Below, piece by piece: positions 6,906 through 53,200 of a DNA stretch of 64,000 bases. Where the stretch lies: contig JAPULZ010000109.1 in assembly GCA_027294455.1 (NCBI GenBank), forward strand, positions 13,259 through 77,258, written 5' to 3'. The stretch's first letter is position 1, and each line of letters begins with the position of its first letter. The position numbers and the translations under genes are program-made. Origin of the DNA: Gemmatimonadota bacterium (GTDB taxonomy: Bacteria > Gemmatimonadota > Gemmatimonadetes > Gemmatimonadales > GWC2-71-9). The notes beneath the pieces are model-generated. The model was not told the origin of the DNA, made no database searches, and saw nothing but the letters and a program-made list of their open reading frames with translations.

Positions 6906-8817
6906 ACCCATTGCGATCCAAGGCGCCGTCGGGTCCCATCCAGGACGCCTGGGACAACCACCGCTTCGAGGTGAAGCTGGTGAATCCGGCCAACAAGCGG
7001 AAATACCAGATCATCGTGGTAGGCTCCGGCTTGGCCGGCGCGTCCGCCGCCGCCACGCTGGGCGAGCTCGGCTACAACGTGCGGTGTTTTTGCTTCCAGG
7101 ATAGTCCGCGCCGGGCGCATAGTATCGCCGCGCAGGGCGGGATCAATGCCGCCAAGAACTACCAGAACGACGGCGATTCCGTGTACCGGCTGTTCTACGA
7201 CACGGTCAAGGGAGGCGATTTCCGCTCGCGCGAGGTCAACGTGTACCGGCTCGCGCAGATCAGCGTCGAGATCATCGACCAGTGCGTGGCGCAAGGTGTG
7301 CCGTTCGCCCGGGAATACGGGGGACTCCTCGCGAATCGTTCCTTCGGGGGGGCACAGGTCTCGCGCACGTTCTACGCCCGGGGCCAGACCGGCCAGCAGC
7401 TGTTGTTAGGGGCCTATCAAGCCCTTGAGCGACAGATCGGGGCGGGCAAGGTCGAGATGTTTCCCCGGACCGAGTTGCTCGACGTCGTCGTCATGGAGGG
7501 ACAGGCCCGGGGCATCGTCGTGCGGGATCTCACGACGGGTCGGGTGTATTCGGTGGCCGGCCACGCCGTCGTGCTGGCCACCGGCGGGTACAGCAACGCG
7601 TTCTATCTCTCGACCAACGCCAAGGGATGCAACGTGACCGCCACGTGGCGAGCCCACAAGCGCGGGGCAGCGTTCGCCAACCCCTGCTTCACTCAAATCC
7701 ACCCGACGTGCATACCCCAGTCCGGCGACTATCAGTCGAAGCTGACTCTCATGAGCGAGTCGCTCCGCAACGACGGGCGGATCTGGGTACCGGTGCAGGC
7801 GGGAGACAAGCGGCCGGCCAAGGACATTCCCACGGCAGAGCGGGACTACTATCTCGAGCGATTATACCCCAGCTTCGGCAACTTGACGCCGCGGGACGTG
7901 GCATCCCGCCGTGCGAAGGAAGTCGTGGATGAGGGACGTGGCGTCGGTGAAGGAGGGCAGGGGGTCTACCTCGACTTTCGCGATGCTCTCCAGCGGCTCG
8001 GGCGGCAGGTGATCGCGGAGCGGTACGGCAATCTGCTCGACATGTACAGACAGATCACGGGGGAAGATCCCTATTCCGTGCCGATGCGAATCTATCCGGC
8101 GCCGCACTACACCATGGGCGGTCTCTGGGTGGACTACAACCTGATGAGCACCGTGCCGGGACTCCATGTCATCGGCGAGGCAAACTTTTCGGACCACGGG
8201 GCCAACCGCCTGGGGGCCAGCGCATTGATGCAAGGACTGGCCGACGGGTATTTCATTCTGCCGCATACCATCGGCGATTACCTGGCGCAGGTCGACACCC
8301 AACCCGTCGACACGGATCATCCAGCCTTCGCCGACACCGAGCGCGAAGTGAACGCCCGCATCCAGGCACTCCTCGACGTCGACGGCACCCGGTCGGTGGA
8401 TTCGTTTCACCGCGAGCTGGGACGGTTGATGTGGGATCAGTGCGGCATGTCACGCAACGCCAAGGACCTCACCGATGCGCTCGAGAAGATCCCCGAGCTG
8501 CGTGAGGAGTTTTGGCACGATCTGCGCGTCACGGGGAGCGGTCACGATCTGAATCAGGAACTCGAAAAGGCAGGCCGCGTGACCGATTTCATGGAGTTCA
8601 CGGAATTGATGTGTCGCGACGCCCTCGAACGGGACGAGTCCTGCGGCGGTCACTTTCGCGAGGAACATCAGACCGCCGATGGCGAGGCGATGCGCCGTGA
8701 CGACGAGTTCGCCTACGTGGCGGCGTGGGAATTCCAGGGGGTTGGCAATACACCCACGTTGCATAAGGAGCCGCTGGATTTCGAATACGTGCACCTCGCG
8801 CAGCGGAGCTACAAGTA

Positions 8818-8818
<1 letters not shown>
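6902..8818 (+). CDS. sdhA: succinate dehydrogenase flavoprotein subunit
   Basis: ATG at 6902 (ATGA overlap with sdhC). [19 protein letters not shown]-binding motif, [14 protein letters not shown] (covalent-FAD His region), [10 protein letters not shown]. The ORF-track start at 6767 lies inside sdhC. Confidence 0.95.
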
Positions 8819-9564
<746 letters not shown>

Positions 9565-9655
9565 TCTCCATTCTCTATTCGTAGTTCCCGCTCTTGCCAT
9601 CCTCCGCCCCACCGCTAATTTCCCCCGCCCAAACCCTCTTTCACGGAGTTCTCTC

Positions 9656-10219
9656 ATGGTCACGATCGCTGCATTGTGGCTGCCGATTCTCTTATCTGCC
9701 GTCTTGGTGTGGATCGCTAGCGCCATCGCCTGGACCGCGGCACCGCACCACAAATCAGATTTTCGTGTCATTCCAAACCAGGATGATGTCCTGGACCTCG
9801 TCGGGAGCAAGAACCTGACGCCGGGCCAATATTGGTTTCCCAACTCCAGCGACAGGAAGGACATGGCCAAGCCCGAGATGGTGGCCAAGATGGAAAAAGG
9901 ACCGGTGGGCGTGATGACCATCATGCCAAACGGCAGGCCCAACATGGGCAAGGCCATGGCACTGTCCTTTGTGTTCTACCTGGGCGTCGGCATCATGGTG
10001 GCCTATCTCGCGGGACGCACGATTGCGGCCGGGGCAGAGTATTTGGCCGTGTTCCGGGTAGCCGGCACCGTCGCTTTCGTGGCCCACGTGGGCGCGCTGT
10101 TCCCGGACTCCACATGGTTCGGGACGCCGTGGAAACGAACCTGGAAGAGCGTCGGCGACGGGTTTGTGTATGCGCTGCTGACGGGCGGGGCGTTTGGTGC
10201 GTTTTGGCCGGGGATGTGA
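9656..10219 (+). CDS. hypothetical integral membrane protein (about 4 TM segments)
   Basis: 187 aa. Hydrophobic N-terminal helix, a soluble stretch, then three hydrophobic helices. G/C-rich third codon positions. No family recognised. Confidence 0.6.
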   Translation: MVTIAALWLPILLSAVLVWIASAIAWTAAPHHKSDFRVIPNQDDVLDLVGSKNLTPGQYWFPNSSDRKDMAKPEMVAKMEKGPVGVMTIMPNGRPNMGKAMALSFVFYLGVGIMVAYLAGRTIAAGAEYLAVFRVAGTVAFVAHVGALFPDSTWFGTPWKRTWKSVGDGFVYALLTGGAFGAFWPGM

Positions 10220-10244
10220 CGATTGGTGATTCTAGCAAGAGACC

Positions 10245-10278
10245 GTACGGGCGAGGCACTGCCTCGCCCGTACTTTTT
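10245..10278 (+). terminator. rho-independent terminator between convergent genes
   Basis: GTACGGGCGAGGC (10245-10257) pairs perfectly with GCCTCGCCCGTAC (10261-10273) around a 3-nt loop and is followed by TTTTT. Lies between the 9656 gene (+) and the queD-like gene (-). Confidence 0.75.
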
Positions 10279-10688
10279 CATTCCCCTCGATACTCCACAT
10301 AATTTTGTGGCGTCTCCCACAGCACCAGCTTCTCCAGCTTGGCGGGGAGCCCTCCCTGCAACATCTGCCAGATCACGATCACGATGTTCTCCGCGGTGGG
10401 ATTGAGATCGGCGAATGCGGGAACGTCGAGATTCAGGTTCTTGTGGTCCAGACATGAAATCACCCGCTCCTCGACCAGTCGCTTGATGGTCCCCAAGTCC
10501 GCCACATAGCCCGTCGCGGGATCGACCTCCCCGGTGACCGACACATCCAGCTCATAGTTGTGGCCGTGGTAGTTCGGATTGCTGCACGGCCCGAACACGC
10601 GAAGGTTTTCCTCGTCGGAGAGGGCGGGGTCGTGGAGCCGGTGCGCGGCGCTGAAGTGGACGCGGCGGGTGATGGTCACGATTGGCAT
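10278..10688 (-). CDS. 6-pyruvoyl-tetrahydropterin / 6-carboxy-tetrahydropterin synthase family protein
   Basis: 136 aa. ITRRVHFSAAHRL...GPCSNPNYHGHNY.L.V.V.GEVDP.TGYV.DL..IK...LDHKNLN is the PTPS/QueD signature. PTPS versus QueD cannot be decided from sequence alone. Confidence 0.85.
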   Translation of the reverse strand: MPIVTITRRVHFSAAHRLHDPALSDEENLRVFGPCSNPNYHGHNYELDVSVTGEVDPATGYVADLGTIKRLVEERVISCLDHKNLNLDVPAFADLNPTAENIVIVIWQMLQGGLPAKLEKLVLWETPQNYVEYRGE

Positions 10689-10881
10689 CGTGTGAAGTTA
10701 GGGGACGGCGATGCGAGATTCTAGATTGGGGCGCAGCAGGCCCGGCGCGCCCCTCCGCGCCCCTGTGAATTGCGAGATCGTCGTAACATCCCGGCGGCTC
10801 GTTAACACGCGCTCCGGGGCCATCGGCCTGCGGAGCCCCAATCTGTCTGGAATCGGCACCGCTTGTGCCTCCGGTCACATT

Positions 10882-10910
10882 TGACCACCTCCTATGACGT
10901 TGCTAGATTT
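10882..10910 (+). promoter_or_regulatory. sigma70-like promoter, TTGACC-17 nt-TAGATT
   Basis: -35 TTGACC at 10882-10887 and -10 TAGATT at 10905-10910. The -10 ends 11 nt before the ATG at 10922, implying a leader of only a few nt. Confidence 0.45.
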
Positions 10911-10921
10911 GAACTTACGTC

Positions 10922-11965
10922 ATGATAAGTGTAAGACATACTTTCCGTTTCGGCTGCCTCCTGGCGGCCTTGTTGCATCCGGCCGGCGCCGAGGTTTCGG
11001 CCCAAACCCGTGGGGTGGACTTCTCGTACGGCCGGTGGTGGCGGAACGGGACGGCGGCCGAGCTCTTCTCCCTCACGTATAGCCGTCCCTGGTTCGGTCC
11101 GGTGGGACTGGGCTTCAGCGGGACGTTCCTGGACGACCGGACGGCCCTCGAGGACAGGACGCAAGCCGGTGGCGAGGTGCAGCTCACGGTGGGGCGCCGG
11201 GGCGGGGGACTCTACGGCATCGGAGCGGGTGGTCTCGCCATGCGGACCGACGGCGGCAGCCTCAACGCGGTGTGGAGTGCCGGGGCGGGGTACGAATGGC
11301 GACCCCTCTCGTTTTTCTCCCTTGGGGCCGAAGCCCGGTATCGCGTCGAGAAGGACGAATGGAGCAAGGCGTTCTGGATTCACGACGCCGCCCGAGACCG
11401 GAAGGGATGGCAGTTGCAGGCCCGCATGGCCATCCACTTCGGCAGCCGCGCCCGGGCTCCGAGCCCGCGGACCCCAGGGACCATCACCACGACGCAGCCG
11501 ACGCTCGAATTCACGCCCCCGTCCGAATCCGACGTGAGCGAGATCGCCATGTCCAGCGGGGCTTCGTCATCCACGGCGGCTCTGACGGCGAGCGTCGTCC
11601 GGACGGCCATCGACGTGATGGGCACGCCGTACAAATGGGGCGGCACCAACGAGAACGGATTCGATTGCTCGGGGCTGATTCAATACGCCTACGGGGAGAA
11701 CGACATCATTTTACCCCGGGTGAGCCGGGATCAGGCCCGAACGGGCACCTTCGTCAACCCGCGAGTCGCCGACCTGCAACCGGGAGACATCCTCGGCTTC
11801 TCGGTCGAGCGGAGTTCCCGGATCACCCACGTGGGGCTGTACATCGGCGACGGGCAGTTCATCCACAGCAACTCGCGGGGCGTGTCCATCTCTAGCCTCA
11901 TTGCCACTGACCCCAACAGCCGGTGGTGGCAACACCGCTGGATCGTCGCGCGCCGCGTGCTCTGA
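10922..11965 (+). CDS. NlpC/P60 peptidoglycan endopeptidase with a signal peptide and a beta-rich N-terminal domain
   Basis: The C-terminal block GTPYKWGGTNENGFDCSGLIQYAY...GDILGF......ITHVGLYIGDGQFIHS carries the Cys/His NlpC/P60 catalytic signature. The N-terminus has a signal-like sequence (LLAALLHPAGAEVSAQ). Confidence 0.85.
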   Translation: MISVRHTFRFGCLLAALLHPAGAEVSAQTRGVDFSYGRWWRNGTAAELFSLTYSRPWFGPVGLGFSGTFLDDRTALEDRTQAGGEVQLTVGRRGGGLYGIGAGGLAMRTDGGSLNAVWSAGAGYEWRPLSFFSLGAEARYRVEKDEWSKAFWIHDAARDRKGWQLQARMAIHFGSRARAPSPRTPGTITTTQPTLEFTPPSESDVSEIAMSSGASSSTAALTASVVRTAIDVMGTPYKWGGTNENGFDCSGLIQYAYGENDIILPRVSRDQARTGTFVNPRVADLQPGDILGFSVERSSRITHVGLYIGDGQFIHSNSRGVSISSLIATDPNSRWWQHRWIVARRVL

Positions 11966-11973
11966 GGTGACAC

Positions 11974-12519
11974 TTGCCCTGGATCGAATGGATTGACGAA
12001 GCCGACGCCACCGGCCCCCTGAAAAAGAGCTTCGATCGATTCGCCACCGAACACGGCGTCGATCATATCCTGAAAATTCATTCACTCAATCCGCGATCTC
12101 TGGAGGATCACTACCGGCTGTACGCCCACCTGATGCGCGGCCCCTCGGGACTCTCTCGCGCCGAACGGGAAATGATCGCGGTCGTGGTTTCGAAAACCAA
12201 CGATTGCTTCTATTGACTGAAGCATCACGGGGCGGGACTCCGTGCGCTGCTGCAAGACGACGCCCGCGTCGCCGCCATCGAAGACGACTACACGACGGCC
12301 GACCTCTCCGCCCGCGAGCACGCCATCCTCGACTACGCTGTCAAGCTGACCCAAACGCCCTCGAAGATGCGGGAAGCCGACATCCAGCGGCTCCGGGATG
12401 CCGGTCTCGAAGACCGCGCGATCCTAGACCTATGCCAGGTGACGGGCTATTTCGCCTATGTGAATCGGATGGCGGACGGGCTTGGTGTCGAGCTGGAGAC
12501 CTACTGGAAAGAACCTTGA
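11974..12519 (+). CDS. AhpD/carboxymuconolactone-decarboxylase (CMD) family peroxidase-related protein with in-frame TGA (12214-12216), a candidate selenocysteine codon
   Basis: The ORF-track ORF 11974..12216 ends ...VVSKTNDCFY-TGA. The same frame continues LKHHGAGLRALLQDD...LSAREHAILDYAVKLTQ...DLCQVTGYFAYVNRMADGLGVE to TGA at 12517-12519, with the same G/C-rich third positions. TGA sits at the second Cys of the family C-x-x-C-x-x-x-H motif. Confidence 0.65.
12218..12254 (+). promoter_or_regulatory. SECIS-like stem-loop immediately 3' of the in-frame UGA
   Basis: Upper stem C12226-G12244, A-U, C-G, G-C, G-C, G.U, G12232-C12238 with apical loop CGGGA (12233-12237). Lower stem A12224-U12248, C-G, G-C, A-U, (A x G), G-C, U12218-A12254, with an internal loop U / CGC between the stems. 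Confidence 0.5.
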
Positions 12520-12536
12520 TGCGCACTGCGCATCAA
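12516..12536 (+). terminator. hairpin spanning the stop codon of the CMD-family gene (no U-tract)
   Basis: TTGATGCGC (12516-12524) pairs with GCGCATCAA (12528-12536) around a 3-nt loop and includes the TGA at 12517-12519. Confidence 0.3.
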
Positions 12537-12646
12537 CCAACATCTTGCTGGGGTGCGAGATCACCCGTGCTGCAGTTCGTGTCGGTGGAGCCGCACCGAT
12601 CCTACGTAGCGTCCTGCTATCCTCCAAGCCTGCACGCCCGCGCCAC

Positions 12647-12674
12647 TTGACGATCTCGACCCCCTCGCTATGAT
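12647..12674 (+). promoter_or_regulatory. sigma70-like promoter of groES-groEL, TTGACG-16 nt-TATGAT
   Basis: -35 at 12647-12652 and -10 at 12669-12674, located just upstream of the CIRCE element and about 90 nt upstream of groES. Confidence 0.55.
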
Positions 12675-12683
12675 TCGAGCTAG

Positions 12684-12710
12684 TTAGCACTCACTAACAC
12701 TGAGTGCCAA
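12684..12710 (+). promoter_or_regulatory. CIRCE (HrcA operator) inverted repeat
   Basis: TTAGCACTC-N9-GAGTGCCAA versus consensus TTAGCACTC-N9-GAGTGCTAA (one mismatch), in the groES leader. Confidence 0.85.
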
Positions 12711-12765
12711 CACCATCCAAGTTAGTGCTACCAAACGCTTTCCAGAATCACGGAGGTGCGAAGTC

Positions 12766-13083
12766 ATGGCCACTGGGTCGAAGTCGAAGAAGAAGGTTGC
12801 GGTTCAGCCACTCAGCGATCGAGTCGTGGTTCGGCCGTTGGAAGAGGCCGAGCAAATGCGAGGGGGCCTGTACATCCCCGACACGGCCAAAGAGAAGCCC
12901 CAGGAGGGCGAGATCGTGGCGGTGGGTCCGGGTCGGTTCGAGAAGGGTGAGCGGGTGCCCATGGAGTTGAGCGTGGGGCAGACCGTGCTGTACGGCAAGT
13001 ACAGCGGCACAGAAGTCACGCTCGACAACGAGCCATATCTCATCATCAAGGAATCTGACGTCCTCGCCGTCATGGGCGGGTGA
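12766..13083 (+). CDS. groES: co-chaperonin GroES
   Basis: 105 aa. PLSDRVVVRPLEE.E....GLYIPDTAKEKPQEGEIVAVGPG...LYGKYSGTEV is the canonical Cpn10 pattern. Confidence 0.97.
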   Translation: MATGSKSKKKVAVQPLSDRVVVRPLEEAEQMRGGLYIPDTAKEKPQEGEIVAVGPGRFEKGERVPMELSVGQTVLYGKYSGTEVTLDNEPYLIIKESDVLAVMGG

Positions 13084-13105
13084 ACGCAATTAGGGAGACT
13101 GATCA

Positions 13106-14743
13106 ATGGGAACAGCGAAAGAACTGCATTTCGACGTCGAGGCCCGCGCGCAGCTGCAGAAGGGTGTCGATCAGCTCGCAAATGCCGTGAGGGTGACGCT
13201 CGGGCCCAAGGGCCGGAACGTCGTGATCGACAAGAAGTTCGGTAGCCCGACGATCACCAAGGATGGCGTGACCGTCGCCAAGGAAGTGGAACTGCCCGAC
13301 CCCGTCCAGAACATGGGCGCCCAGATGGTGAAGGAGGTCGCGACCAAGACGTCCGACGTGGCCGGCGACGGCACGACGACGGCGACGGTGCTCGCTCAGG
13401 CCATCTTCCGCGAGGGTCTCAAGAGTGTCACCGCCGGGGTCAATCCGATGGCCATCAAGCGCGGCATCGACAAGGCAGTCGCGGTCGTGGTGGGCGAGCT
13501 GAAGAAGCTGTCCCAGACCACGGCCGGCAAGAAGGAGATCGCTCAGGTTGCGTCGGTCTCGGCCAACAACGACTCGGAAATCGGCGACCTCATCGCCCAG
13601 GCGATGGAACGGGTCGGCAAGGACGGTGTCATCACGGTCGAGGAGGCCAAGGGTCTCGAGACCGAGCTGGAGACGGTCGACGGGATGCAGTTCGACCGCG
13701 GCTACCTCTCGCCCTATTTCGTGACCGACTCCGAGAAGATGGAGGCCGCGTTGGAAGAGGCCTATATCCTCATTCACGATAAGAAAATCTCCGCGATGAA
13801 GGACCTGCTTCCGATCCTGGAGAAGGTCGCGCAGACCGCCAAACCGTTGCTGGTGATCGCGGAAGACGTCGAGGGTGAAGCCCTGGCGACCATCGTCGTG
13901 AACAAGCTGCGCGGGACTCTCAAGATCTGCGCGGTCAAGGCTCCGGGCTTCGGCGATCGGCGGAAGGCCATGTTGCAGGACATCGCGGTCCTGACCGGCG
14001 GCCAGGTGATCAGCGAGGAAGTCGGCTTCAAGCTGGAGAACGCGGTGCTCAGCGACCTGGGCCAAGCCAAGCGCATCGTGGTGGACAAGGACGATACCAC
14101 GATCGTCGATGGCGGCGGCAAGGAGAAAGACATCCAGGGCCGCATCGGCGAGATCAAGGCCGCGGTGGACAAGAGCACGTCCGACTACGACCGCGAGAAG
14201 TTGCAGGAGCGACTGGCCAAGCTGGCAGGTGGCGTGGCGGTGATCAACGTCGGTGCCGCCACGGAAACGGAAATGAAGGAAAAGAAGGCCCGGGTCGAGG
14301 ATGCGTTGCACGCCACACGGGCGGCTGTCGAAGAGGGCATCGTACCCGGCGGTGGTGTCGCGTTCCTTCGGGCGCAAAAGGCTGTGCAGAAGGTCAAGGT
14401 CGACGACCACGATGAGCAGATCGGTTTCAACATCGTGCGGCGTGCCCTCGAGGAGCCCATCCGGGTGATCGCGGACAACGCCGGTGTTGAGGGCTCGATC
14501 GTCGTCGAGCACGTCCGCAACGCGAAGGACCAGAACGAAGGCTACAACGCGCTGACGGATGTGTATGAAGATCTGGTGAAGGCGGGCGTGATCGACCCGA
14601 CCAAGGTGGTCCGGACCGCGCTGCAAAATGCGGCTTCGGTCGCCGGCTTGATTCTCACCACCGAGGTCGTGGTGGTCGAGCAGAAGGAAGATGAGCCAGC
14701 CATGCCTGGGCCAGGCGCGGGTGGCATGCCGGGTATGTACTAG
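13106..14743 (+). CDS. groEL: chaperonin GroEL
   Basis: 545 aa. [41 protein letters not shown], and a C-terminal GGMPGMY tail. Confidence 0.98.
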
Positions 14744-22239: not shown

Positions 22240-22268
22240 TTGACCGCCTTTTGGGAGCCAAGTAATCT
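22240..22268 (+). promoter_or_regulatory. sigma70-like promoter, TTGACC-17 nt-TAATCT
   Basis: -35 at 22240-22245 and -10 at 22263-22268. The -10 ends 12 nt before the ATG at 22281. Confidence 0.45.
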
Positions 22269-22280
22269 TCTGCGATTCAC

Positions 22281-22865
22281 ATGCGTGCTATGTCCTTTTC
22301 CCGATTCATCTTGACGCTCGCAGCGCCGGCGCCGTTTCTCGCCGCCGCCGCGTGCGGTAGCAGCCTCGATCTACCGCCGGCCCTGTTGTCGAACATCGTC
22401 GACACGGCAACGATCCATGCGTTGCAGGGGACCGACATCGGCCTGCCGAGCGGCTTCGACGTCACGACCGGCTCGCTCGCTCGTACCGACCGTGGCTTCG
22501 AACCGTTCGACTTCGCCTACGACATCGATCCCGGGGGCAACTCGGTGATCCTCACCCTGGGCGTGTTGGGCTTGGCGCCCGCATCGGCCATCCAGATGTC
22601 GAATCGCTCGTTTCCCGACATCACGATCGCACCCCTCGACGACTACGAAGACGACAGCACCATGACCGTCGAGTTGGACGACGTGTTCATCGTCCGATCG
22701 CGGGCCACGTCGGCCGGTTGCGCGTTTTTCCTCGGATCCTTGCCGCGTTACGGCAAGTTTCGAGTCCTCGCCATCGACCAGAATCTGCGCCAGATTATGC
22801 TCGAGCACGTCGTCAATCTCAATTGTGGCTATCGCGGTCTCGAACCGGGCGTTCCCACCAACTGA
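22281..22865 (+). CDS. hypothetical lipoprotein
   Basis: 194 aa with a lipobox-like N-terminus (LAAPAPFLAAAACGSS). No family recognised. Confidence 0.6.
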   Translation: MRAMSFSRFILTLAAPAPFLAAAACGSSLDLPPALLSNIVDTATIHALQGTDIGLPSGFDVTTGSLARTDRGFEPFDFAYDIDPGGNSVILTLGVLGLAPASAIQMSNRSFPDITIAPLDDYEDDSTMTVELDDVFIVRSRATSAGCAFFLGSLPRYGKFRVLAIDQNLRQIMLEHVVNLNCGYRGLEPGVPTN

Positions 22866-22871
22866 CAGACC

Positions 22872-24149
22872 GTGATCGATCTCAAACAGCTTCGTGACGC
22901 GCCCGAGGAGTTCAAGGCGGCGGCGGCACGGCGCGACGCCGGCCTCGTGCCGGCCCTCGACGCGATCCTCGAATTGGACGAGCGGCGCCGCCAAGCCCTC
23001 AAACGCGTCGAAAGTCTGAAGGCGGAGCAGAACAAGGCGTCCACCGAAGTCGCCCAGCTGAAGCAGAGCGGCGCCGATGTATCCGAGTTCATCGGCCGGC
23101 TCAAGGTACTGAGCGACACGATCAGGAAATTGGATCAGGAGCTGCGGGACGTGGAAAGGCAGTTGCGGGATCGCCTGCTGAAGATCCCCAACGTCCCGCT
23201 CGCCGGCGTCCCTGAGGGAGATGCCTCCGCCAACCTGGAGCTTCGCACCTGGGGCACACCGCCGGTGTTCGCTTTCGCGCCCAAGCCGCACTGGGAGTTG
23301 GGCGAGACGTTGGGCGTGCTGGATCTGGCGCGGGGCGCGAAGGTCGCCGGCAGCGGCTTTCCGGTCTACACCGGCATGGGCGCCCGCCTGGTGCGGGGCT
23401 TGATCAACTTCATGATGGACCTCCACGCCGAGCAACACGGCTATCACGAGATCTGGCCGCCGGCACTCGTGAACGAGGCCAGCGCGTTGGGGACGGGACA
23501 GCTGCCGGACTTGGAAAACAACATGTACGTCACGGAGGATGGGCTCTATCTGGTTCCCACCGCCGAGGTGCCGGTGACGAACCTCCACCGCGACGAGATT
23601 CTCTCGGCCGACCAGATGCCGCTGGCGTATGTAGCGTATTCTCCTTGCTTTCGCCGCGAGGCCGGTGCCCACGGCAAGGACACGAGGGGCATCATCCGGA
23701 TCCACCAGTTCGACAAGGTGGAACTCGTGCGTTGTTGCACACCGGAGACGTCGGACGACGAGCTGGAGTTGCTGCTCGGGCACGCCGAGACGGTGTTGCA
23801 GTTGCTCGATCTGCCCTATCGGGTGGTGGCGCTGGCCACCGGAGACCTGGGATTCGCGAGCGCCCGCACCTACGACCTCGAGGTCTTTGCCCCGGGCGTG
23901 GACGCGTGGCTCGAGGTGTCGAGCGCGAGCGTGTTCACCGATTTTCAGGCACGCCGTGCAAACATTCGGTACCGTCCGGCGTCCGGCGGGAAGCTGAGGT
24001 TCGTGCACACGCTGAATGCCTCCGGCCTCGCCTTGCCGCGCACGATCATCGCGCTGCTGGAGAACCACCAGCAGGACGACGGCACTGTGCGCCTGCCCGA
24101 CGTGTTGATGCCGTATTTGGGAGTGGATCGCCTCACGCCACATGCTTAG
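22872..24149 (+). CDS. serS: seryl-tRNA synthetase
   Basis: 425 aa. N-terminal coiled-coil (IDLKQLRD.PE......RR) and class-II core (FRREAGAHGKDTRGIIRIHQFDKVE, TLNASGLALPRTIIALLENHQ). Confidence 0.97.
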   Translation: MIDLKQLRDAPEEFKAAAARRDAGLVPALDAILELDERRRQALKRVESLKAEQNKASTEVAQLKQSGADVSEFIGRLKVLSDTIRKLDQELRDVERQLRDRLLKIPNVPLAGVPEGDASANLELRTWGTPPVFAFAPKPHWELGETLGVLDLARGAKVAGSGFPVYTGMGARLVRGLINFMMDLHAEQHGYHEIWPPALVNEASALGTGQLPDLENNMYVTEDGLYLVPTAEVPVTNLHRDEILSADQMPLAYVAYSPCFRREAGAHGKDTRGIIRIHQFDKVELVRCCTPETSDDELELLLGHAETVLQLLDLPYRVVALATGDLGFASARTYDLEVFAPGVDAWLEVSSASVFTDFQARRANIRYRPASGGKLRFVHTLNASGLALPRTIIALLENHQQDDGTVRLPDVLMPYLGVDRLTPHA

Positions 24150-40168: not shown

Positions 40169-40530
40169 AATCGCGCGGACATCACCGCCCGGAGCGGGTC
40201 GCCACCATGGTTCAACAGTTGCTGGCCCAAGCCCTGACGACGCGCATCAAGGATCCCCGCGTGGGGTTCGTGACACTCACGGGCGTGACCGTGACATCGG
40301 ACCTGTCTCACGCGACCGTGCGCGTGAGTGTCATGGGCACCGACGAGGAGCAGGCGGAAGCCATGGCCGGTCTCGAACACGCCCGCGGATTTCTCCGCTC
40401 CCTCCTGGCCCGCGCCGTCGACCTGCGCATCACGCCGGAGCTCCACTTCGTGATCGATCGGGGCCTCGAACATGCGAGCCGCATCGATGCCCTCCTCGCC
40501 GACATCAAGCGCGCCGAGTCCGAATCCTGA
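40165..40530 (+). CDS. rbfA: ribosome-binding factor A
   Basis: ATG at 40165 (ATGA overlap). R..RV....Q..LA..L...IKDPRVGFVT.T.V.VT.DL..A.V..S... Confidence 0.9.
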   Translation: MKSRGHHRPERVATMVQQLLAQALTTRIKDPRVGFVTLTGVTVTSDLSHATVRVSVMGTDEEQAEAMAGLEHARGFLRSLLARAVDLRITPELHFVIDRGLEHASRIDALLADIKRAESES

Positions 40531-40541
40531 GCGACGGATTT

Positions 40542-41378
40542 TTGCTGGTCGACAAGCCAGCAGGCCCCACGTCCCACGATGTCGTGGACGTCGTGCGACG
40601 GGCGATCGGTGTGCGCCGCGTGGGACACACAGGCACCCTGGATCCCTTCGCCTCGGGGCTTCTGGTCATGGTGGTGGGACGCGCCACCCGGCTGGCACGC
40701 TACCTCGTGCACCAACGCAAACGCTACACCGGTATCGTCCGGCTCGGCACCACTACCGATTCCGACGACCGGACCGGGGAGGTCACCGCAACTTCCGAGG
40801 CGTGGACTGGGTTGACGCAGGACGACGTCCACCGGGCCATGGCCGCCCTGGTGGGAGCCGGGCGGCAGCGCCCGCCGGCGTTCTCGGCCAAGAAGATCGG
40901 CGGCCGGCGTGCCTATGAGCTGGCCCGGGCCGGCCAAGCCATCCCGCTCGCCGACGTGGAGGTGGAAATCCTCTCCTTTTCCTTCACCTCCATGGACGGA
41001 CCGGACGTGGGATTCGACGTCCTGGTGAGCGGAGGCACGTACATCAGGTCGCTCGCCCGGGACCTGGGGACCCGCCTCGGCTGCGGAGCCCATCTCGCCG
41101 AGCTGCGCCGGACGGAGCTGGGGAGGTTCGCCGTGCGCGACGCATGCCCGGCGGATGCCGTGGTGCCCCGCGCCGTTCGCCCACCCCGGGAGCTGGTGCA
41201 GCATCTGGATGCGGTGGCCGTGGGAGAGGCCGAGCGCGACCTGCTGCGCCACGGGCGCGCCATCACGGTGGAGGCCACCCTGTCGGGCACCGTGGCGATT
41301 ACCAGCGGGGAGGAGCTGCTCGCCATCGCCGAAGCCCACGGTCACGAGCTCACCCCTCGCGTGGTGCTCGCCACATGA
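40542..41378 (+). CDS. truB: tRNA pseudouridine-55 synthase; start uncertain within 40530-40545
   Basis: LLVDKPAGPTSHDVV......(V)GHTGTLDPFASGLLV...G.ATRL is the TruB catalytic-Asp motif. Confidence 0.92.
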   Translation: MLVDKPAGPTSHDVVDVVRRAIGVRRVGHTGTLDPFASGLLVMVVGRATRLARYLVHQRKRYTGIVRLGTTTDSDDRTGEVTATSEAWTGLTQDDVHRAMAALVGAGRQRPPAFSAKKIGGRRAYELARAGQAIPLADVEVEILSFSFTSMDGPDVGFDVLVSGGTYIRSLARDLGTRLGCGAHLAELRRTELGRFAVRDACPADAVVPRAVRPPRELVQHLDAVAVGEAERDLLRHGRAITVEATLSGTVAITSGEELLAIAEAHGHELTPRVVLAT

Positions 41379-42319
41379 GTACTCGCGAGCCCGGTTCAGT
41401 GGTCACCGTGGGCACCTTCGACGGCATCCATCTGGGCCACTGGGCGATCCTGCGGGAGATCGTCTGCCGCGCCCGGCGGGACCACAGGCGCAGCGTGCTG
41501 GTCACGTTCGAGCCCCACCCGCTGGAAGTCGTCAATCCCGAGGCCGCGCCCCGCTTGCTCACGGTGGGCGACGAGCGCCGGGAGATCCTCGCCCAGGCGG
41601 AGGTGGACCTGCTCGTTTTCCTACCTTTTACCAAGGCCCTTTCTCACTACTCGCCCGAGATGTTCGTGCGTTTTCTCATCGATCGGTTCCACATGCAAGA
41701 GCTCGTGATCGGTCACGATCACGGATTCGGCCGGGGCCGATCGGGAGACGAGACGCTGCTGCGTCGACTGGGGAAGGAGCAGGGATTCACGGTCGACGTG
41801 ATCGGTGCGGTGACCGCCAAAGGCCATCCGGCCTCCTCGACCCTGGTGCGCCGCGCCGTGGCCGGCGGCGATCTCGCCACGGCCGCCGAGCTCCTGGGAC
41901 GCCCGTATTCCATCACGGCACCGGTGATCCATGGTGCGAATCGCGGCAAGGAGATCGGCTATCCAACCATCAATCTGTCCCTCGCCAATCCTAGGAAGCT
42001 GCTCCCGCCGGACGGCGTATACGCGGTGAGAGCGGAATGGCGGAACGGGGCGTCCGGGGGGATGATGCATCAAGGCCCGAGGCCCACGTTCGGCGAGGCC
42101 AACCGGAGCCTCGAGGTGCACCTGTTCGGCGTGGACGCCGATCTATATGGCATGCCGGTCAAGATCTCCTGGGACACCCGCCTGCGGGACATCGAGGATT
42201 TTCCCAGCGTGGAGGCCCTGAAGGCGCAGCTAGACCAGGACTTGGCGGCTGCGAAACGCGCGTTGACAGGCCCCAACGGGCCAGCTAGTTATCACAGTTC
42301 TCCAGCTTCTGACTGTTAG
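41375..42319 (+). CDS. ribF: bifunctional riboflavin kinase / FMN adenylyltransferase
   Basis: ATG at 41375 (ATGA overlap). TVGTFDGIHLGH..I........V.TFEPHP; C-terminal G...GR.IGYPT.N.......P.DGVYA... Confidence 0.92.
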   Translation: MSTREPGSVVTVGTFDGIHLGHWAILREIVCRARRDHRRSVLVTFEPHPLEVVNPEAAPRLLTVGDERREILAQAEVDLLVFLPFTKALSHYSPEMFVRFLIDRFHMQELVIGHDHGFGRGRSGDETLLRRLGKEQGFTVDVIGAVTAKGHPASSTLVRRAVAGGDLATAAELLGRPYSITAPVIHGANRGKEIGYPTINLSLANPRKLLPPDGVYAVRAEWRNGASGGMMHQGPRPTFGEANRSLEVHLFGVDADLYGMPVKISWDTRLRDIEDFPSVEALKAQLDQDLAAAKRALTGPNGPASYHSSPASDC

Positions 42320-44976: not shown

Positions 44977-45750
44977 GTGCTGGTCGACACACACTGCCAC
45001 CTCGGCGCCGAACAATTCGACTCCGACCGCTCCGATGTGGTGCGGCGCGCACGCGAAGCGGCCGTCCGTCACATCGTCGTGGTGGCCGACTCCGAGCCAG
45101 CGACCAGACGAGCCATCGCGCTGGCTCGGGAACTCAACCTCTCGGCCACGGCGGGCGTACATCCTCACGAAGCGTCATCCTGGAACCCACGGGTGGCGGC
45201 GGCCATCGAGGCGGCCCTCGGCGACAGGCAAGTCGTCGCGGTCGGGGAGACTGGACTCGACTATCACTACGACCACTCGCCGCGGAACGCACAACGGTCG
45301 GCGTTTGCCGCGCAGCTCCAACTCGGAGCCCGGTTGGGACTGCCCGTGGTCGTCCATTCACGTTCCGCCGACGACGACATGAGCGCCATGCTGCGCGATA
45401 CCGATGCGATATACATCCTGCATTCGTTCAGCTCGGGCCCCGACGTGCTCGCGGCCGCGCTGGCCGCCAATGCCTACGTCTCCTTCAGCGGTATGGTGAC
45501 GTTCAAATCGTGGAAAGACGACGACGCAGTCCGCGCCGTGCCGGCCGACCGCCTGCTCATCGAGACCGACGCCCCGTACCTTGCTCCAACGCCACACCGG
45601 GGCAAGCGGAATGAACCGGCCTACCTGCGCGAAGTCGCGCTCAAGATCGCGGAGCTCCGCGACGAGGACCCGGACGAGATAACCACCAAAACGACGCGAA
45701 ACGCGGCAGCGTGTTTCGGCAACCGGATCACCGAGCACACCTCACCATGA
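44977..45750 (+). CDS. TatD-family metal-dependent hydrolase
   Basis: 257 aa. LVDTHCHL....F..D......A...GV......GVHPH.....GE.GLDY.Y..S.R..Q...F..Q......LP.V.HSR.A..D......ETD.PYL.P.P.RG.RNEP. Confidence 0.9.
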   Translation: MLVDTHCHLGAEQFDSDRSDVVRRAREAAVRHIVVVADSEPATRRAIALARELNLSATAGVHPHEASSWNPRVAAAIEAALGDRQVVAVGETGLDYHYDHSPRNAQRSAFAAQLQLGARLGLPVVVHSRSADDDMSAMLRDTDAIYILHSFSSGPDVLAAALAANAYVSFSGMVTFKSWKDDDAVRAVPADRLLIETDAPYLAPTPHRGKRNEPAYLREVALKIAELRDEDPDEITTKTTRNAAACFGNRITEHTSP

Positions 45751-47426
45751 CGATGACAACCGTTCCTTCGGACATCGCGATCGCCCAGGCGGCGACGATG
45801 CGGCCCATCACCGATGTCGCCGCGGACTTGGGCCTAGGTCCCGACGAGATCATCACCTATGGGACCACCAAGGCCAAGATCAAGCTGGACGCCCTCACCG
45901 CGCGGAAGCGGCGGGCACGGCTGGTGTTGGTAACCGGCATCAACCCCACGGCTGCCGGCGAAGGGAAGTCGACCGTGACGGTGGGGGTCTCCCAGGCGTT
46001 GCGCAAGATCGGCCAGAACGTCGTCATGTGCATTCGGGAACCGAGCCTCGGGCCGGTGTTCGGCATCAAGGGCGGGGCCGCCGGCGGCGGCTACGCGCAG
46101 GTCGTGCCCATGGATGAAATCAATTTGCACTTCACCGGGGACTTTCACGCGATCTCCAGCGCGCACAACCTGCTCTCGGCCATGCTGGACAATCATCTCC
46201 ACCAAGGCAACGCCCTCGGCCTCGATCAACGACGGATCACCTGGCCTCGCACCATCGACATGAATGACCGGGCGCTTCGGAGCATCACCGTGGGGCTCGG
46301 CGGACCCTTGGGCGGGGTGCCCCGGGAAGAACGGTTCGTGATCACACCAGCCAGCGAGATCATGGCCATCATCGGCCTGTCCCGGAACATGGAAGACCTC
46401 GAGGAACGCCTGGGCAACATCATCGTGGGGCTCACCCGGGCCCGTCAACCGATTCGCGCCAAGGAGCTCATGGCCCACGGCGCCATGACGCTGCTGCTCA
46501 AGGACGCCCTCCAGCCGAACCTCGTCCAGACCCTCGAGGGCGGGCCGGCCCTCGTGCATTGCGGACCGTTCGGCAACATCGCGCACGGGTGCAACTCCGT
46601 GGTCGCCACCGAGATGGCCTTGCGACTCGGCGACATCGTGGTGACCGAGGCGGGCTTCGGCGCCGACCTGGGCGCCGAGAAATTCTTCAACATCAAGTGC
46701 CGCAACGCCAACCTGAACCCCGAAGCGGCCGTCATCGTAGCCACGGTGCGCGCCCTCAAGCTGCACGGTGGCGCGCCGAAAGACGCGCTCACAGAGCCCG
46801 ACGCGCAAGCCGTGCAACGTGGGTTCTCCAACCTCGCTCGCCACATCGAGAACGTGGGGAAGTTCGGCGTGCCGGTCATCGTCGCGATGAACCGTTTCGT
46901 GACCGATTCCGACGAGGAGCTGGCCGTCGTGCGCAGCGGGTGCGAGGCTCTCGGGGCGCGGGTCGCCCCGTGCAACGTGTGGGAGCAGGGTGGGGACGGG
47001 GGCGTGGAACTGGCCGAGGAGATCCTGAGCGTGCTGGAGAACGAGAAGTCCAGCTTCAAACCGCTGTACGACATCACGCGGCCAATCAAGGAGAAGATCG
47101 AAACCGTCGCGCGCGAGATCTATCGTGCGGAAGGCGTCGACTTCACCGCGACAGCCGCCCGCAAGGCCGACCAGCTCACGGGTTTCGGCTTGGGCGAAAC
47201 ACCGGTATGCATCGCGAAGACCCAGTACTCGTTCAGCGACAACCCGACATTGCTGGCGGCACCCGAAGGATTCCGGATCACGATTCGTGACATGTATCCG
47301 GCAGCCGGTGCCGGGTTCGTCGTCGCCATGGCGGGAGACATCATGACGATGCCCGGACTGGGCAAAACGCCGGCGGCGGAGAGGATGCGGGTCAGGAGCG
47401 ATGGCACGATTGAAGGGTTGTTTTAA
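45747..47426 (+). CDS. fhs: formate-tetrahydrofolate ligase
   Basis: ATG at 45747 (ATGA overlap with tatD). PSDI.IAQ......I...A..LG, LVTGINPT.AGEGK.T, PSLGP.FGIKGGAAGGGY.QV.PM..INLHFTGD.HA. Confidence 0.96.
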   Translation: MTMTTVPSDIAIAQAATMRPITDVAADLGLGPDEIITYGTTKAKIKLDALTARKRRARLVLVTGINPTAAGEGKSTVTVGVSQALRKIGQNVVMCIREPSLGPVFGIKGGAAGGGYAQVVPMDEINLHFTGDFHAISSAHNLLSAMLDNHLHQGNALGLDQRRITWPRTIDMNDRALRSITVGLGGPLGGVPREERFVITPASEIMAIIGLSRNMEDLEERLGNIIVGLTRARQPIRAKELMAHGAMTLLLKDALQPNLVQTLEGGPALVHCGPFGNIAHGCNSVVATEMALRLGDIVVTEAGFGADLGAEKFFNIKCRNANLNPEAAVIVATVRALKLHGGAPKDALTEPDAQAVQRGFSNLARHIENVGKFGVPVIVAMNRFVTDSDEELAVVRSGCEALGARVAPCNVWEQGGDGGVELAEEILSVLENEKSSFKPLYDITRPIKEKIETVAREIYRAEGVDFTATAARKADQLTGFGLGETPVCIAKTQYSFSDNPTLLAAPEGFRITIRDMYPAAGAGFVVAMAGDIMTMPGLGKTPAAERMRVRSDGTIEGLF

Positions 47427-47889: not shown

Positions 47890-47986
47890 GGGGGCGGATT
47901 TGGCCTGGTGGCTTGCACGGTCTTCAAAACCGCTGGGAGGTGCCTTAGGCGGCTCCGGTGGGTTCGATTCCCACACGTCCCCGCCA
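47890..47986 (+). tRNA. selC: candidate tRNA-Sec (anticodon UCA), 97 nt, CCA encoded
   Basis: Acceptor GGGGGCG(G) 47890-47897 pairs with (A)CGUCCCC 47975-47982, then discriminator G and CCA (47984-47986). T-arm is GUGGG-UUCGAUU-CCCAC (47958-47974). Anticodon loop is C-U-UCA-A-A (47922-47928). Long variable arm at 47936-47956 (9 pairs, one G x G mismatch). D-arm has a 4-nt loop UGGU. Weak point: the anticodon stem has only 4 clean pairs plus an A x C. Confidence 0.7.
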
Positions 47987-48051: not shown

Positions 48052-48693
48052 GTGAATCGCCGGTGCCCATCACCGAGCAAGTGGGGCGTCCCGCGCTGGT
48101 GCGGTGGTCGCCGTGAGCGTTCCCGTCATCGCCGTTCTCGCAAAAGGGATTCCCGGACACAGGGGGGACGCGACCTGATCCGGCCGGTCCCTCTCCTCAC
48201 ACTCGGGCTCTTGGCGCTGGGCCCGGGGCTCGTCAGCGCCCAGATTCCCATCCCGCAGCGAACCGGCGAACAGGACACGGTTCAGGTCGATCCCTTCCGG
48301 GAAGCGCCTCCCGTCTCACCCATGGGGGCCTTGTGGAGATCGATGTTGGTGCCGGGATGGGGCCAGGCCCGCCTCAACCGACGAGTCACCGGTGCTTTCT
48401 TCGTCGTCTGGGAGGGCGTCACCCTCACCATGACCATCAAATCCATCCACCAGCTGGACTATCTCCAGACCGTCGAGTCGGAGGACGACATCGAGTCCCA
48501 GGACCGCGTCAGATCCAAGCGAAACGAGATCCAGGACTGGGCCGTCCTCCTCGCCTTCAACCACCTCCTGGCCGGCGTCGAAGCCTTCGTGTCGGCGCAA
48601 CTGTGGGATTTTCCGGAGGAACTCGCCGTCCGGGTATTGCCCCGCGGCGGCGTAGGGCTGAGGGTGGGGCTTCCTATCCCGGCGATACGGTAG
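48052..48693 (+). CDS. hypothetical membrane/envelope protein; start uncertain (GTG 48052 to CTG 48175)
   Basis: Hydrophobic segment LLTLGLLALGPGLVSAQ followed by ...SMLVPGWGQARLN... and a second hydrophobic stretch. G/C-rich third positions. No family assigned with confidence. Confidence 0.5.
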   Translation: MNRRCPSPSKWGVPRWCGGRRERSRHRRSRKRDSRTQGGRDLIRPVPLLTLGLLALGPGLVSAQIPIPQRTGEQDTVQVDPFREAPPVSPMGALWRSMLVPGWGQARLNRRVTGAFFVVWEGVTLTMTIKSIHQLDYLQTVESEDDIESQDRVRSKRNEIQDWAVLLAFNHLLAGVEAFVSAQLWDFPEELAVRVLPRGGVGLRVGLPIPAIR

Positions 48694-51279: not shown

Positions 51280-52101
51280 ATGACCGTTTCCTGGCTGCCC
51301 CCACCCATACTGGTGGCGGGTCCGTGCGCCCTCGAGGACGATCGACTGAACCTCACCGTCGGCGAAACCTTGGCCGAGCTCCAAGCAAAGCTCGGCCTTC
51401 GCGTCCTGTACAAGGGCAGTTTCGACAAGGCGAATCGATCGAGCCCCGACGCGCCGCGCGGGCCGGGAATGGAGGCCGGGCTCGCGCGACTCGAGCGGGT
51501 GCGGGCGGAAACCGGATTGCCGGTGATCACCGACGTCCACGAGGCACAACAGGTCGAGGCGGCAAGTCAGGTGGTGGACGCGCTGCAAATCCCGGCCTTC
51601 CTCTGCCGCCAGACCGATTTGTTGTCGGCGGCGGGCCAGACCGGCAAGCCGGTAAACATCAAGAAGGGGCAATGGATGTCGCCCGAGGCGATGCGTGGCG
51701 CGGCGCTCAAGGTACGGGCGGCGGGCGGCGGCGCCGTGGCCTTGACCGAACGGGGAACGTTCTTCGGCTACGGCGACCTCGTCGTCGACATGCGGAGCTT
51801 CACGAGTCTCAAAGCCGCGACCGGGTGTCCGGTGCTGTTCGACGCCACTCACGCCGTGCAGCAACCGGGGCAGGGCCCCGGCGGGATCTCCGGGGGCCAG
51901 CGCCAGCACGTGGAGGCGCTCCTCCTGGCCGCCGCCGCGGCCGGCGCGGACGGTTTCTTTCTGGAGACACATCCGCGGCCCGAGGAAGCCCCCAGCGACG
52001 GGGCCACCATGTGGCCCCTGGCCGAGCTGGAGCGCCTGGTGGAGCGGGCCCTCGATGTGTGGCATGCGTCACGGCAGTCCCCCGCACCGAAGTTGATGTA
52101 G
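51280..52101 (+). CDS. kdsA: 2-dehydro-3-deoxyphosphooctonate (Kdo-8-P) aldolase
   Basis: 273 aa. AGPC..E.......A..L..........YKGSFDKANR.S......G.G...GL.....V......PV.TDVHE..Q......V.D.LQIPAFLCRQTDL, FDATH.VQ.PG. Confidence 0.95.
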   Translation: MTVSWLPPPILVAGPCALEDDRLNLTVGETLAELQAKLGLRVLYKGSFDKANRSSPDAPRGPGMEAGLARLERVRAETGLPVITDVHEAQQVEAASQVVDALQIPAFLCRQTDLLSAAGQTGKPVNIKKGQWMSPEAMRGAALKVRAAGGGAVALTERGTFFGYGDLVVDMRSFTSLKAATGCPVLFDATHAVQQPGQGPGGISGGQRQHVEALLLAAAAAGADGFFLETHPRPEEAPSDGATMWPLAELERLVERALDVWHASRQSPAPKLM

Positions 52102-52107
52102 GGAACG

Positions 52108-52677
52108 ATGATAGACCCAGCAATCGCGCGGCGCATCAAGCTGATCGGCCTCGATGTCGACGGCGTCATGACCGATGCCGGGGTCTACCTGGGCACGGTG
52201 GGCGGCGAGACGGTGGAGCTCAAACGCTTCGACATCCAGGACAACGTCGGTGTCCGGCTGCTGCGCGAGGCAAACATGCCGGTGGCCATCGTGAGCGGGC
52301 GCATCTCTCCCGCCACGACGGCTCGGGCGAAGGAACTGGGCATCATCGACGTGTTTCAAGACGACGGCGCCCAGAAGCTCGGCGCGTTTGAGCAGATCCT
52401 GGCCCGACACGAGGTCGGCTGGGACGAGGCCGCCTATCTAGGAGACGACCTGCCCGACCTCACGCTCCTCACCCGAGTGGGACTGCCCGTGTGCGTCGCC
52501 AACGCGACGCCCGACGTGCGCGCCGTGGCGCACCACGTGACCGCGGCTCGCGGTGGGCATGGCGCGATCCGAGAATTCGTCGAGACGTTCCTGCGGGCCC
52601 GCGGCGAGTGGGATGCCGCCGTGGAGCGCTACGTGAACGCCAGAGGCGGCCTGCCCGAGGTGACCCATGTCGCGTAG
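52108..52677 (+). CDS. kdsC: Kdo-8-phosphate phosphatase (HAD-IIIA)
   Basis: 189 aa. IKLIGLDVDGVMTD......G.....K.F...D..G...L.......AI.SGR......RA.ELGI..........K.........G.......Y.GDD.PDL. Confidence 0.85.
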   Translation: MIDPAIARRIKLIGLDVDGVMTDAGVYLGTVGGETVELKRFDIQDNVGVRLLREANMPVAIVSGRISPATTARAKELGIIDVFQDDGAQKLGAFEQILARHEVGWDEAAYLGDDLPDLTLLTRVGLPVCVANATPDVRAVAHHVTAARGGHGAIREFVETFLRARGEWDAAVERYVNARGGLPEVTHVA

Positions 52678-53200
52678 GTGGCTGCCCGGCGCTGGGGCGT
52701 GCGCTTTTGCGGCGGTCGCCATCGGCTGCGGCGGCGTGGAAGGACCGCCCACGACCATCGTCGACGCCGACTCGGCCGATCAGATCGTATTCGGACTCGA
52801 TCACATCGTCACGACCAGCGGTGTGCGGCGTGTGCGGGTGGAGGCGGACACCGCGTTCTACTACGCGTCGACGCAAACGTTCGAGCTGCGGCAGATGAAG
52901 GTTATCTTTTACACGACGGCCGGCACGGAATCCTCGACGCTCACGGCGCGGGAAGGCACCTACCACACGAATAATGGGAACATGGAGGCACGGATCGACG
53001 TGGTCGGGTTGACGCCCGATGGACGGCGACTCACGACGTCGAAACTGACGTACAATCGCCTTTCGGATCAATTGCGCAGTACGGCTCCGTTCGTGTTTGA
53101 CAGCGCTGACGAACACTTGGAGGGCGACGGGTTCACGTCGGATCCGAACTTCAGCGATGTGCAGGCCACGAGTATTCGGGGCGGAGTGCGGAACCAATGA
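52667..53200 (+). CDS. lptC: LptC-like LPS export protein (lipoprotein-type N-terminus)
   Basis: 177 aa with lipobox-like AAVAIGCGG and a beta-rich sequence. Positioned kdsC - this gene - lptA-like - lptB with overlapping stops/starts. The call rests mainly on size and context. Confidence 0.65.
   Translation: MSRRWLPGAGACAFAAVAIGCGGVEGPPTTIVDADSADQIVFGLDHIVTTSGVRRVRVEADTAFYYASTQTFELRQMKVIFYTTAGTESSTLTAREGTYHTNNGNMEARIDVVGLTPDGRRLTTSKLTYNRLSDQLRSTAPFVFDSADEHLEGDGFTSDPNFSDVQATSIRGGVRNQ

Follow-up and report, generated by a model that had tools for sequence, protein, structure and literature searches.

Positions 11974 to 12519 on the + strand of the window (the whole stretch of DNA analysed, 64,000 nucleotides) very probably hold an intact gene for an AhpD-like selenoprotein, in which the in-frame UGA at codon 81 would be read as selenocysteine (Sec) and a hairpin directly 3' of it would act as the SECIS element, a reading which is based on the comparison of sequences. 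Translation of this region gives one frame of 181 codons, interrupted only by a TGA (12214-12216) and closed by the TGA at 12517-12519, as had been described in an earlier reading made from the letters of this DNA (hereafter the sequence-only reading), and its call of a candidate selenoprotein appears to be right, though the family has been known since 2005. The gene and its borders are made up as follows:

11964..11969, + strand: Shine-Dalgarno-like GAGGTG, 4 nt 5' of the TTG start, assigned from its position only
11974..12519, + strand: predicted coding sequence, complete, for an AhpD-like selenoprotein of the peroxidase-related family TIGR01926; 181 residues, of which residue 81 is Sec
12214..12216, + strand: in-frame UGA, predicted Sec residue U81, where the CxxC motif has its second Cys (Cys133 in Mycobacterium tuberculosis AhpD, MtAhpD)
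12516..12536, no strand assigned: perfect 9-bp palindromic hairpin over the AhpD-like stop codon, terminator-like by scan on the minus strand only

The TTG start (11974) lines up with the starts of the orthologues, which are ATG or GTG, and the GAGGTG sequence in front of it shares bases with the TGA (11963-11965) that ends the NlpC/P60 gene upstream. There is no further stop or frameshift 3' of the TGA at 12214-12216, and the third-position G+C in this part is 0.78, as in the other window genes (the G+C of the window is 65%), which bears out the strong G/C bias past the TGA remarked on in the sequence-only reading. The palindromic hairpin at 12516-12536, for which shuffled sequences yield 0.6 such sites by chance (weak evidence), may represent the end of the transcript.

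The ORF lister gives only the 80-aa piece 11974-12216, the truncation which had been pointed out before, and also lists, in this frame, an ATG ORF of 50 aa at 12367-12519, a pattern that would suit two small genes, i.e. an N-terminal protein of 80 aa and a C-terminal protein of ~100 aa which restarts past the TGA. However, the 84 nt that follow the TGA contain no ATG, GTG or TTG in frame, which excludes a split gene, and the first ATG (12367) would delete conserved helices. Furthermore, a single domain extends across the junction both in TIGR01926 and in the solved structures, and the catalytic set of E66, C78, U81 and H85 straddles it, which leaves two separate genes with practically no probability. 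Two other same-frame ORF pairs in the window, split by TGA at 5253 and 22863, were also considered as Sec candidates, but were rejected as merely adjacent genes: the first is an ORF followed by mdh and the second an ORF followed by serS (22866-24149), with Pfam domains which begin at the start of the second ORF.

For the assignment of the family, profile searches were run on the product with a Cys at codon 81. Its match to the NCBIfam model TIGR01926 ('peroxidase-related enzyme') scores 167.4 bits (cutoff 81.8, E = 2.6e-49), with residues 2-172 of the protein aligned on positions 1-173 of the 178 of the model and hence spanning the TGA, and the product is also matched by Pfam CMD (PF02627) at 3.2e-11. 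The alignment of the full product to CMD models, which the sequence-only reading had proposed as a check, thus runs across the TGA, and full-length Cys homologues exist. The active site is formed by the redox motif C78-F-Y-[TGA]81-L-K-H84-H85 and an upstream glutamate:

12169..12171, + strand: codon of Glu66, counterpart of Glu118 in the proton relay of M. tuberculosis AhpD
12205..12213, + strand: codons of Cys78-Phe79-Tyr80, the first half of the CxxU motif, with Cys78 and Tyr80 invariant in the alignment

An alignment with 17 database homologues shows that E66, C78, Y80, H84 and H85 are invariant, and the TGA aligns with Cys both in homologues and in solved structures, in agreement with the earlier claim that it falls on the second Cys of a C-x-x-C-x-x-x-H motif. 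The closest solved structures are 3C1L (Mlr4105), 2PFX, 6K40 (AhpD), 2OYO and 2PRR, which match over nearly the full length with E values of 3e-31 to 1e-22; the C-x-Y-C of 3C1L and 2PFX aligns to C-F-Y-[TGA], and all solved-structure matches are Cys forms, with no Sec form among them. With regard to AhpD proper (TIGR00777), the product scores 16.5 bits against a cutoff of 191.95 and only the active-site helix pair aligns, and it is hence not an AhpD orthologue; no ahpC gene adjoins it. The match to TIGR00777 is ungapped (residues 57-94 on model positions 109-146) and places E66, C78, Y80, U81 and H85 on positions 118, 130, 132, 133 and 137. The proton relay consists of Glu118, Cys130, His132, Cys133 and His137 in MtAhpD, and of Glu36, Cys48, Tyr50, Cys51 and His55 in Pseudomonas aeruginosa PA0269 (PMC3141380), and the spacing of 12, 2, 1 and 4 residues is identical in these two proteins and in the AhpD-like gene.

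A scan of one genome per species recovered four Gemmatimonadales loci (L001-L004) with 72-74% identity, which share the gene order sdhB, ORF, PTPS, NlpC/P60, AhpD-like, groES and groEL with the window and encode GroEL proteins 88-90% identical to that of the window, which indicates a Gemmatimonadales-like organism as the source of the window. All four syntenic loci have a TGA at the equivalent of codon 81, after which the frame continues and is conserved. A metagenome scan added 80 loci, and the codon class was assigned by motif searches, which left 6 loci unclassified at the Sec position. Among the 81 classifiable loci, the codon at the Sec position is TGA in 66, TGC or TGT (Cys) in 13, AGA (Arg) in L006 and GGC (Gly) in L082, with TAA or TAG found in none of the 81. 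The same TGA is therefore present in many independent assemblies, comprising those of the four relatives and dozens of metagenomic contigs, which makes a read error implausible. An error of sequencing or assembly would need to affect only one base of a true TGC or TGT codon, in what would then be an ordinary CxxC AhpD-like protein, but the SECIS-specific codon choices described below also go with the TGA forms and not with the Cys forms, and the chance of such an error is negligible.

The part of the gene downstream of the TGA is also under purifying selection. In comparisons of the window and L001-L004 the dN/dS ratio 3' of the TGA is 0.09-0.18, and 0.12-0.18 for the window against each of the four, with dS near saturation, and the differences fall mostly on third codon positions (about 20-28, 16-17 and 48-55 for the first, second and third position, respectively), whereas pairs among the window and L001-L004 give a dN/dS of 0.05-0.07 for the part 5' of the TGA. 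A low downstream dN/dS with dS near saturation indicates that the part 3' of the TGA is translated. These results also bear on the possibility of a pseudogene, i.e. a nonsense change of the TGC or TGT codon of the second Cys, with either an 80-residue fragment or nothing being made. Such a change requires only a single base, ORF callers see 80 aa only, and selA, selB and selD are absent from the scan of the window (see below), but the TGA is found in loci from very different organisms and is retained in the syntenic relatives at synonymous saturation, without a later stop or frameshift and without replacement by TAA or TAG. A pseudogene thus appears to be effectively refuted by the comparative data, and we consider it extremely improbable. 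The sequence-only reading had itself named a lack of in-frame conservation past 12216, and a true stop or frameshift in orthologues, as outcomes that would speak against a selenoprotein, and neither of these was seen.

A different question is whether the UGA is read through without Sec, either by reassignment (to Trp or Gly, codes 4 and 25) or by leaky termination, with near-cognate decoding as Trp, Cys or Arg. Several 'full-length' public protein entries do show a Trp at the Sec position, and L006 and L082 carry real Arg and Gly codons there. The Trp in the database entries is however a gene-caller artefact, since the matching loci carry TGA: the DNA of P0002 (locus L005) reads TGA and the stored protein is not obtained under code 11, the peptide around the site is identical between P0025 and the loci L024 and L026 and nearly so between P0022 and L028, with TGA in each of these loci. 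Moreover, 34/57 genes in the window genuinely end in TGA, more than in any other stop, including well-conserved genes which end at the ends of their families, and this excludes a genome-wide reassignment. In addition, homologues with another residue at this position have Cys in the great majority of cases, the pattern typical of Sec, the window carries a gene for a dedicated tRNA-Sec, and the UGA is followed by a SECIS-type element under synonymous constraint. Taken with these points, read-through without Sec is very unlikely, and decoding as Sec is the reading that we retain.

The hairpin following the UGA was reproduced by folding, with the stem-loop and the distance from the UGA to the CGGGA loop as given in the sequence-only reading:

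12218..12254, + strand: predicted bacterial SECIS (bSECIS), intragenic, from its fold, its agreement with four bSECIS criteria, its wobble constraint and its enrichment in Sec forms

It consists of a lower stem (12218-12224 with 12248-12254), an upper stem (12226-12232 with 12238-12244) and an apical loop CGGGA (12233-12237), and covers the codons of the peptide H-H-G-A-G-L-R, which includes His85. The bSECIS model asks for an upper stem of 4-16 bp that carries a loop of 3-9 nt with a G among its first two bases, a distance of 16-37 nt from UGA to loop and an MFE of at most -7.5 kcal/mol (PMC13188914). The window hairpin has a loop of 5 nt on an upper stem of 7 bp (one G-U pair), a G as the second loop base followed by GG, in line with an NGGGN loop conserved across the main Sec subgroup, and a distance of 16 nt (12217-12232), and hence has the SECIS likeness claimed for it. 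It folds at -15.0 kcal/mol, which lies below the energy limit but is a weak criterion, as half of the synonymous recodings pass the whole model.

The stability of the hairpin was also considered as evidence for a SECIS element, but this was discarded: its z-score is -1.24 versus dinucleotide shuffles, not unusual for this G+C-rich coding sequence, 16% of the synonymous recodings fold at least as well, and Sec and Cys forms show the same MFE shift against synonymous recodings (z = -0.64 and -0.71, respectively), with no separation by total energy. As the stability is within chance, the evidence for a SECIS element lies in the constraint on the stem wobble positions and in the enrichment in Sec forms rather than in the fold energy. 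The wobble analysis covers 31 Sec loci that encode HHG(A/E)GLR, with the same genes as background. The codons in the stem are nearly fixed, with GGR for the first Gly in 31/31 (background 45%), CTY for Leu in 31/31 (background 40%), CGT for Arg in 26/31 (background 20%) and CAC for the second His in 31/31, whereas the wobble position of the second Gly, located in the loop, is free and takes all four bases (A 15, T 10, G 4, C 2).

The bSECIS model was tested by constrained folding, as a perfect-stem version (the stem alone reaching -7.5 kcal/mol) was too strict and missed L001-L004. The Sec forms fit the model in 57/66 cases and have the loop at 16-19 nt from the UGA in 50/66, compared with 50% and 22% of their synonymous recodings, whereas only 3/13 and 2/13 of the Cys forms do so, against 32% and 17% of their recodings. 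The structure of the hairpin is thus kept by selection beyond the needs of the protein code, as seen from the wobble constraint and from an enrichment confined to the Sec forms.

Searches for a common structure gave less clear results. RNAalifold did not find a consensus structure for 61 Sec sequences; with pairing in a fixed register, a 4-bp core is paired in >90% of these 61 sequences, and the covariation is weak and no better than in shuffles, which is likely due to the location of the element within a conserved peptide and to subgroups with shifted registers. The latter have a GGAGC/GCUCC stem with a GGUC-type loop, the outermost pair (13:31) is essentially confined to the window sequence, and nine Sec loci, mostly on low-G+C marine-type contigs, fit no register of the bSECIS implementation used. 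A permissive Rfam scan of 12150-12330 gave no family at the hairpin even at E <= 10, with a lone snoRNA match that is spurious.

The tRNA-Sec which the sequence-only reading had placed at 47890-47986 was recovered with Rfam at 47890-47982, the extra positions at its end being the encoded discriminator and CCA:

47890..47986, + strand: selC, tRNA-Sec (Rfam RF01852 at 47890-47982), anticodon UCA, with the discriminator G and CCA at 47983-47986

The RF01852 match is full length at 69.8 bits (gathering score 47), with the anticodon loop CUUCAAA, and selC is located between fhs and an unknown ORF which precedes pyrG. ARAGORN reported no tRNA at all in the window and thus missed the tRNA-Sec. The genes selA, selB and selD were not found in a scan of 43 ORFs that took in the larger reading frames of the 64-kb window, in which the Sec machinery is attested by selC only.

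From these elements a route for the decoding can be proposed. The tRNA-Sec would be charged with serine by SerRS and converted to Sec-tRNA(Sec) by SelA and SelD (as described in PMC13188914), and SelB carrying the Sec-tRNA(Sec) would bind the G-rich apical loop of the hairpin and deliver the selC-encoded tRNA to UGA81 during translation. In the protein, Sec81 would replace the second, relay-activated Cys, following the enzymology of AhpD (PMC3141380), and together with Cys78 could cycle between the selenol/thiol and selenenylsulfide states, with reducing equivalents passed to a peroxiredoxin-type partner or used for the direct reduction of hydroperoxides. By analogy, the AhpD-like protein is most likely a thiol/selenol oxidoreductase with a selenenylsulfide cycle.

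The family itself has a published history, and its listing as a bacterial selenoprotein family, as stated in the sequence-only reading, is correct. The AhpD-like protein (COG2128, CxxU) was described as a selenoprotein family from the Sargasso Sea in 2005 by Zhang and Gladyshev, with 27 sequences and a predicted SECIS (PMC1088965), followed in 2008 by 'AhpD-like 1' as the fourth most abundant family in the GOS data, with 299 Sec forms and 902 Cys homologues (PMC2398784); a 2026 review has the entry 'AhpD-like protein', TIGR01926, CxxU (PMC13188914), and the family serves as a browsing example in a database paper. As family, motif and SECIS type have all been documented since 2005, the biology of the window gene is ordinary and not new. 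We found no mention in the literature of the AhpD-like family or the Sec trait in Gemmatimonadetes, which may reflect limited literature coverage.

The main value of the analysis is therefore in the annotation, where a coding sequence at 11974-12519 with Sec at codon 81 would restore a complete antioxidant enzyme. Standard gene callers split or truncate the AhpD-like gene, and some public catalogues store a Trp at the Sec position. Together with selC, the gene would mark its Gemmatimonadales-like host as a user of selenocysteine, which bears on the selenium requirement and the oxidative-stress physiology of this host. The fixed slot of the gene in Gemmatimonadales, next to the CIRCE-controlled groESL operon, might indicate a link with the stress response. 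More tentatively, and on balance rather doubtful, the codons of the catalytic helix (H-H-G-A/E-G-L-R/L) may encode the SECIS element with RNA and peptide mutually constrained, in at least two hairpin registers depending on the lineage (CACGGRG/CUCCGU(G) with an NGGGN loop, and GGAGC/GCUCC with a GGUC-type loop), and the low-G+C marine subgroup could represent a distinct bSECIS class.

Finally, we compared the window gene with related systems. M. tuberculosis AhpD and PA0269 share the all-helical fold family of CMD/AhpD with it, and PA0269 also has a Tyr at the third relay position, like Y80; both are Cys enzymes, whereas the second Cys would be replaced by Sec in the AhpD-like gene. The 'alkylhydroperoxidase-related (seleno)protein' NF041238 (AhpD_rel_CFYUT, the 'hypothetical protein 1' of the Sargasso Sea) has an AhpD-related domain and a near-identical local motif (C-F-Y-U), but is a two-domain family of 357 residues compared with the 181 aa of the window protein, and membership was rejected, as the match reaches 61.7 bits (cutoff 175) and covers only model positions 152-338, i.e. 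the C-terminal half. The SECIS elements of Escherichia coli fdhF and fdnG are, like the window hairpin, intragenic hairpins just 3' of the UGA with G residues exposed in a small loop at the tip, placed at the consensus distance; the sequences are not similar, and the loop is NGGGN here versus GGUC-type in fdhF and fdnG, although a subgroup of the AhpD-like family has loops of GGUC or GGU when a shifted register is used. With the AhpD-like selenoprotein family (COG2128/TIGR01926) the window gene shares the HMM family, the CxxU motif with Sec predicted at the second Cys, a SECIS directly 3' of the UGA with conserved apical-loop G residues, widespread Cys homologues and one Sec per protein. Every character of membership that can be judged from sequence (TIGR01926, CxxU) is present in the window gene, and nothing essential separates it from the known AhpD-like selenoproteins, the window copy lying in a conserved NlpC/P60 - AhpD-like - groES/groEL neighbourhood.

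The AhpD-like selenoprotein gene is found in a stretch (window 8767-14743) with the order sdhB, an ORF, PTPS (minus strand), NlpC/P60, the selenoprotein gene, groES and groEL, and this sdhB-to-groEL order is common to four Gemmatimonadales MAGs (L001-L004). Because its GroEL is 88-90% identical to those of these four syntenic loci, the window is placed by sequence comparison in or near the Gemmatimonadales. The selenoprotein gene is directly upstream of groESL. Since groESL is preceded by a sigma-70-like promoter and CIRCE element of its own, together spanning window 12647-12710, its transcription and regulation are separate from those of the selenoprotein gene. The elements identified in this region were:

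window 12516-12536, perfect 9-bp palindromic hairpin (TTGATGCGCA-CTG-TGCGCATCAA)
window 12647-12674, sigma-70-like promoter belonging to the groES-groEL operon (TTGACG, 16 nt, TATGAT)
window 12684-12710, near-perfect CIRCE (HrcA operator) inverted repeat following the promoter (TTAGCACTC-N9-GAGTGCCAA)

The selenoprotein gene's stop codon falls within the 12516-12536 hairpin, which in a terminator scan obtained a terminator-like score on the minus strand only.

With regard to the tRNA-Sec gene (selC), ARAGORN reported no tRNAs in the whole 64-kb window; the Rfam search identified a full-length tRNA-Sec with anticodon UCA (69.8 bits) within window 47890-47986, and selC would thus escape a pipeline with ARAGORN as its sole tRNA finder. 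It is flanked by fhs (45711-47426) on one side and by an ORF (48052-48693) followed by pyrG on the other, and is not adjoined by selA or selB. This directly downstream ORF is one of several sizeable ORFs with coding-like composition which had no match in Pfam or NCBIfam:

window 9542-10219, ORF
window 22266-22865, ORF
window 40308-41402, minus strand, ORF
window 48052-48693, ORF downstream of tRNA-Sec
window 51324-52391, ORF
window 53197-54462, ORF

Two further same-frame ORF pairs with high third-position G+C are split by a single TGA (window 5253 and 22863). These were rejected as recoded genes: each is simply two neighbouring genes, malate dehydrogenase coming after an ORF in one case and serS after an ORF in the other, and in each pair the Pfam domains begin where the second ORF does. 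No second selenoprotein candidate was seen in the 64-kb window.

Among the homologues, locus L006 has AGA (Arg) instead of TGA at 342-344, yet its SECIS-type hairpin is still intact (CAC GGA GCG GGT CTC CGT), suggesting either a recent TGA to AGA change or a base-call error. Locus L082 has GGC (Gly) at 1761-1763 and lacks the hairpin; neither Arg nor Gly could perform Cys/Sec redox chemistry. Six homologues in public protein catalogues (P0002, P0005, P0008, P0009, P0022 and P0025) are listed with Trp at the Sec codon, and the DNA encoding P0002 reads TGA there (L005, 601-603). Gene callers evidently applied an alternative genetic code to short contigs, and these entries are systematic mis-translations of AhpD-like selenoproteins.

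Finally, when the 54 nt after each TGA were compared with the standard bacterial SECIS model, nine TGA homologues (L024, L026, L027, L028, L031, L042, L043, L044 and L055) did not fit in any tested register. In several of these the contig is low in G+C and the peptide reads HHGEGLLKL; the SECIS used by the nine may be weaker than, or different from, the standard bacterial one.
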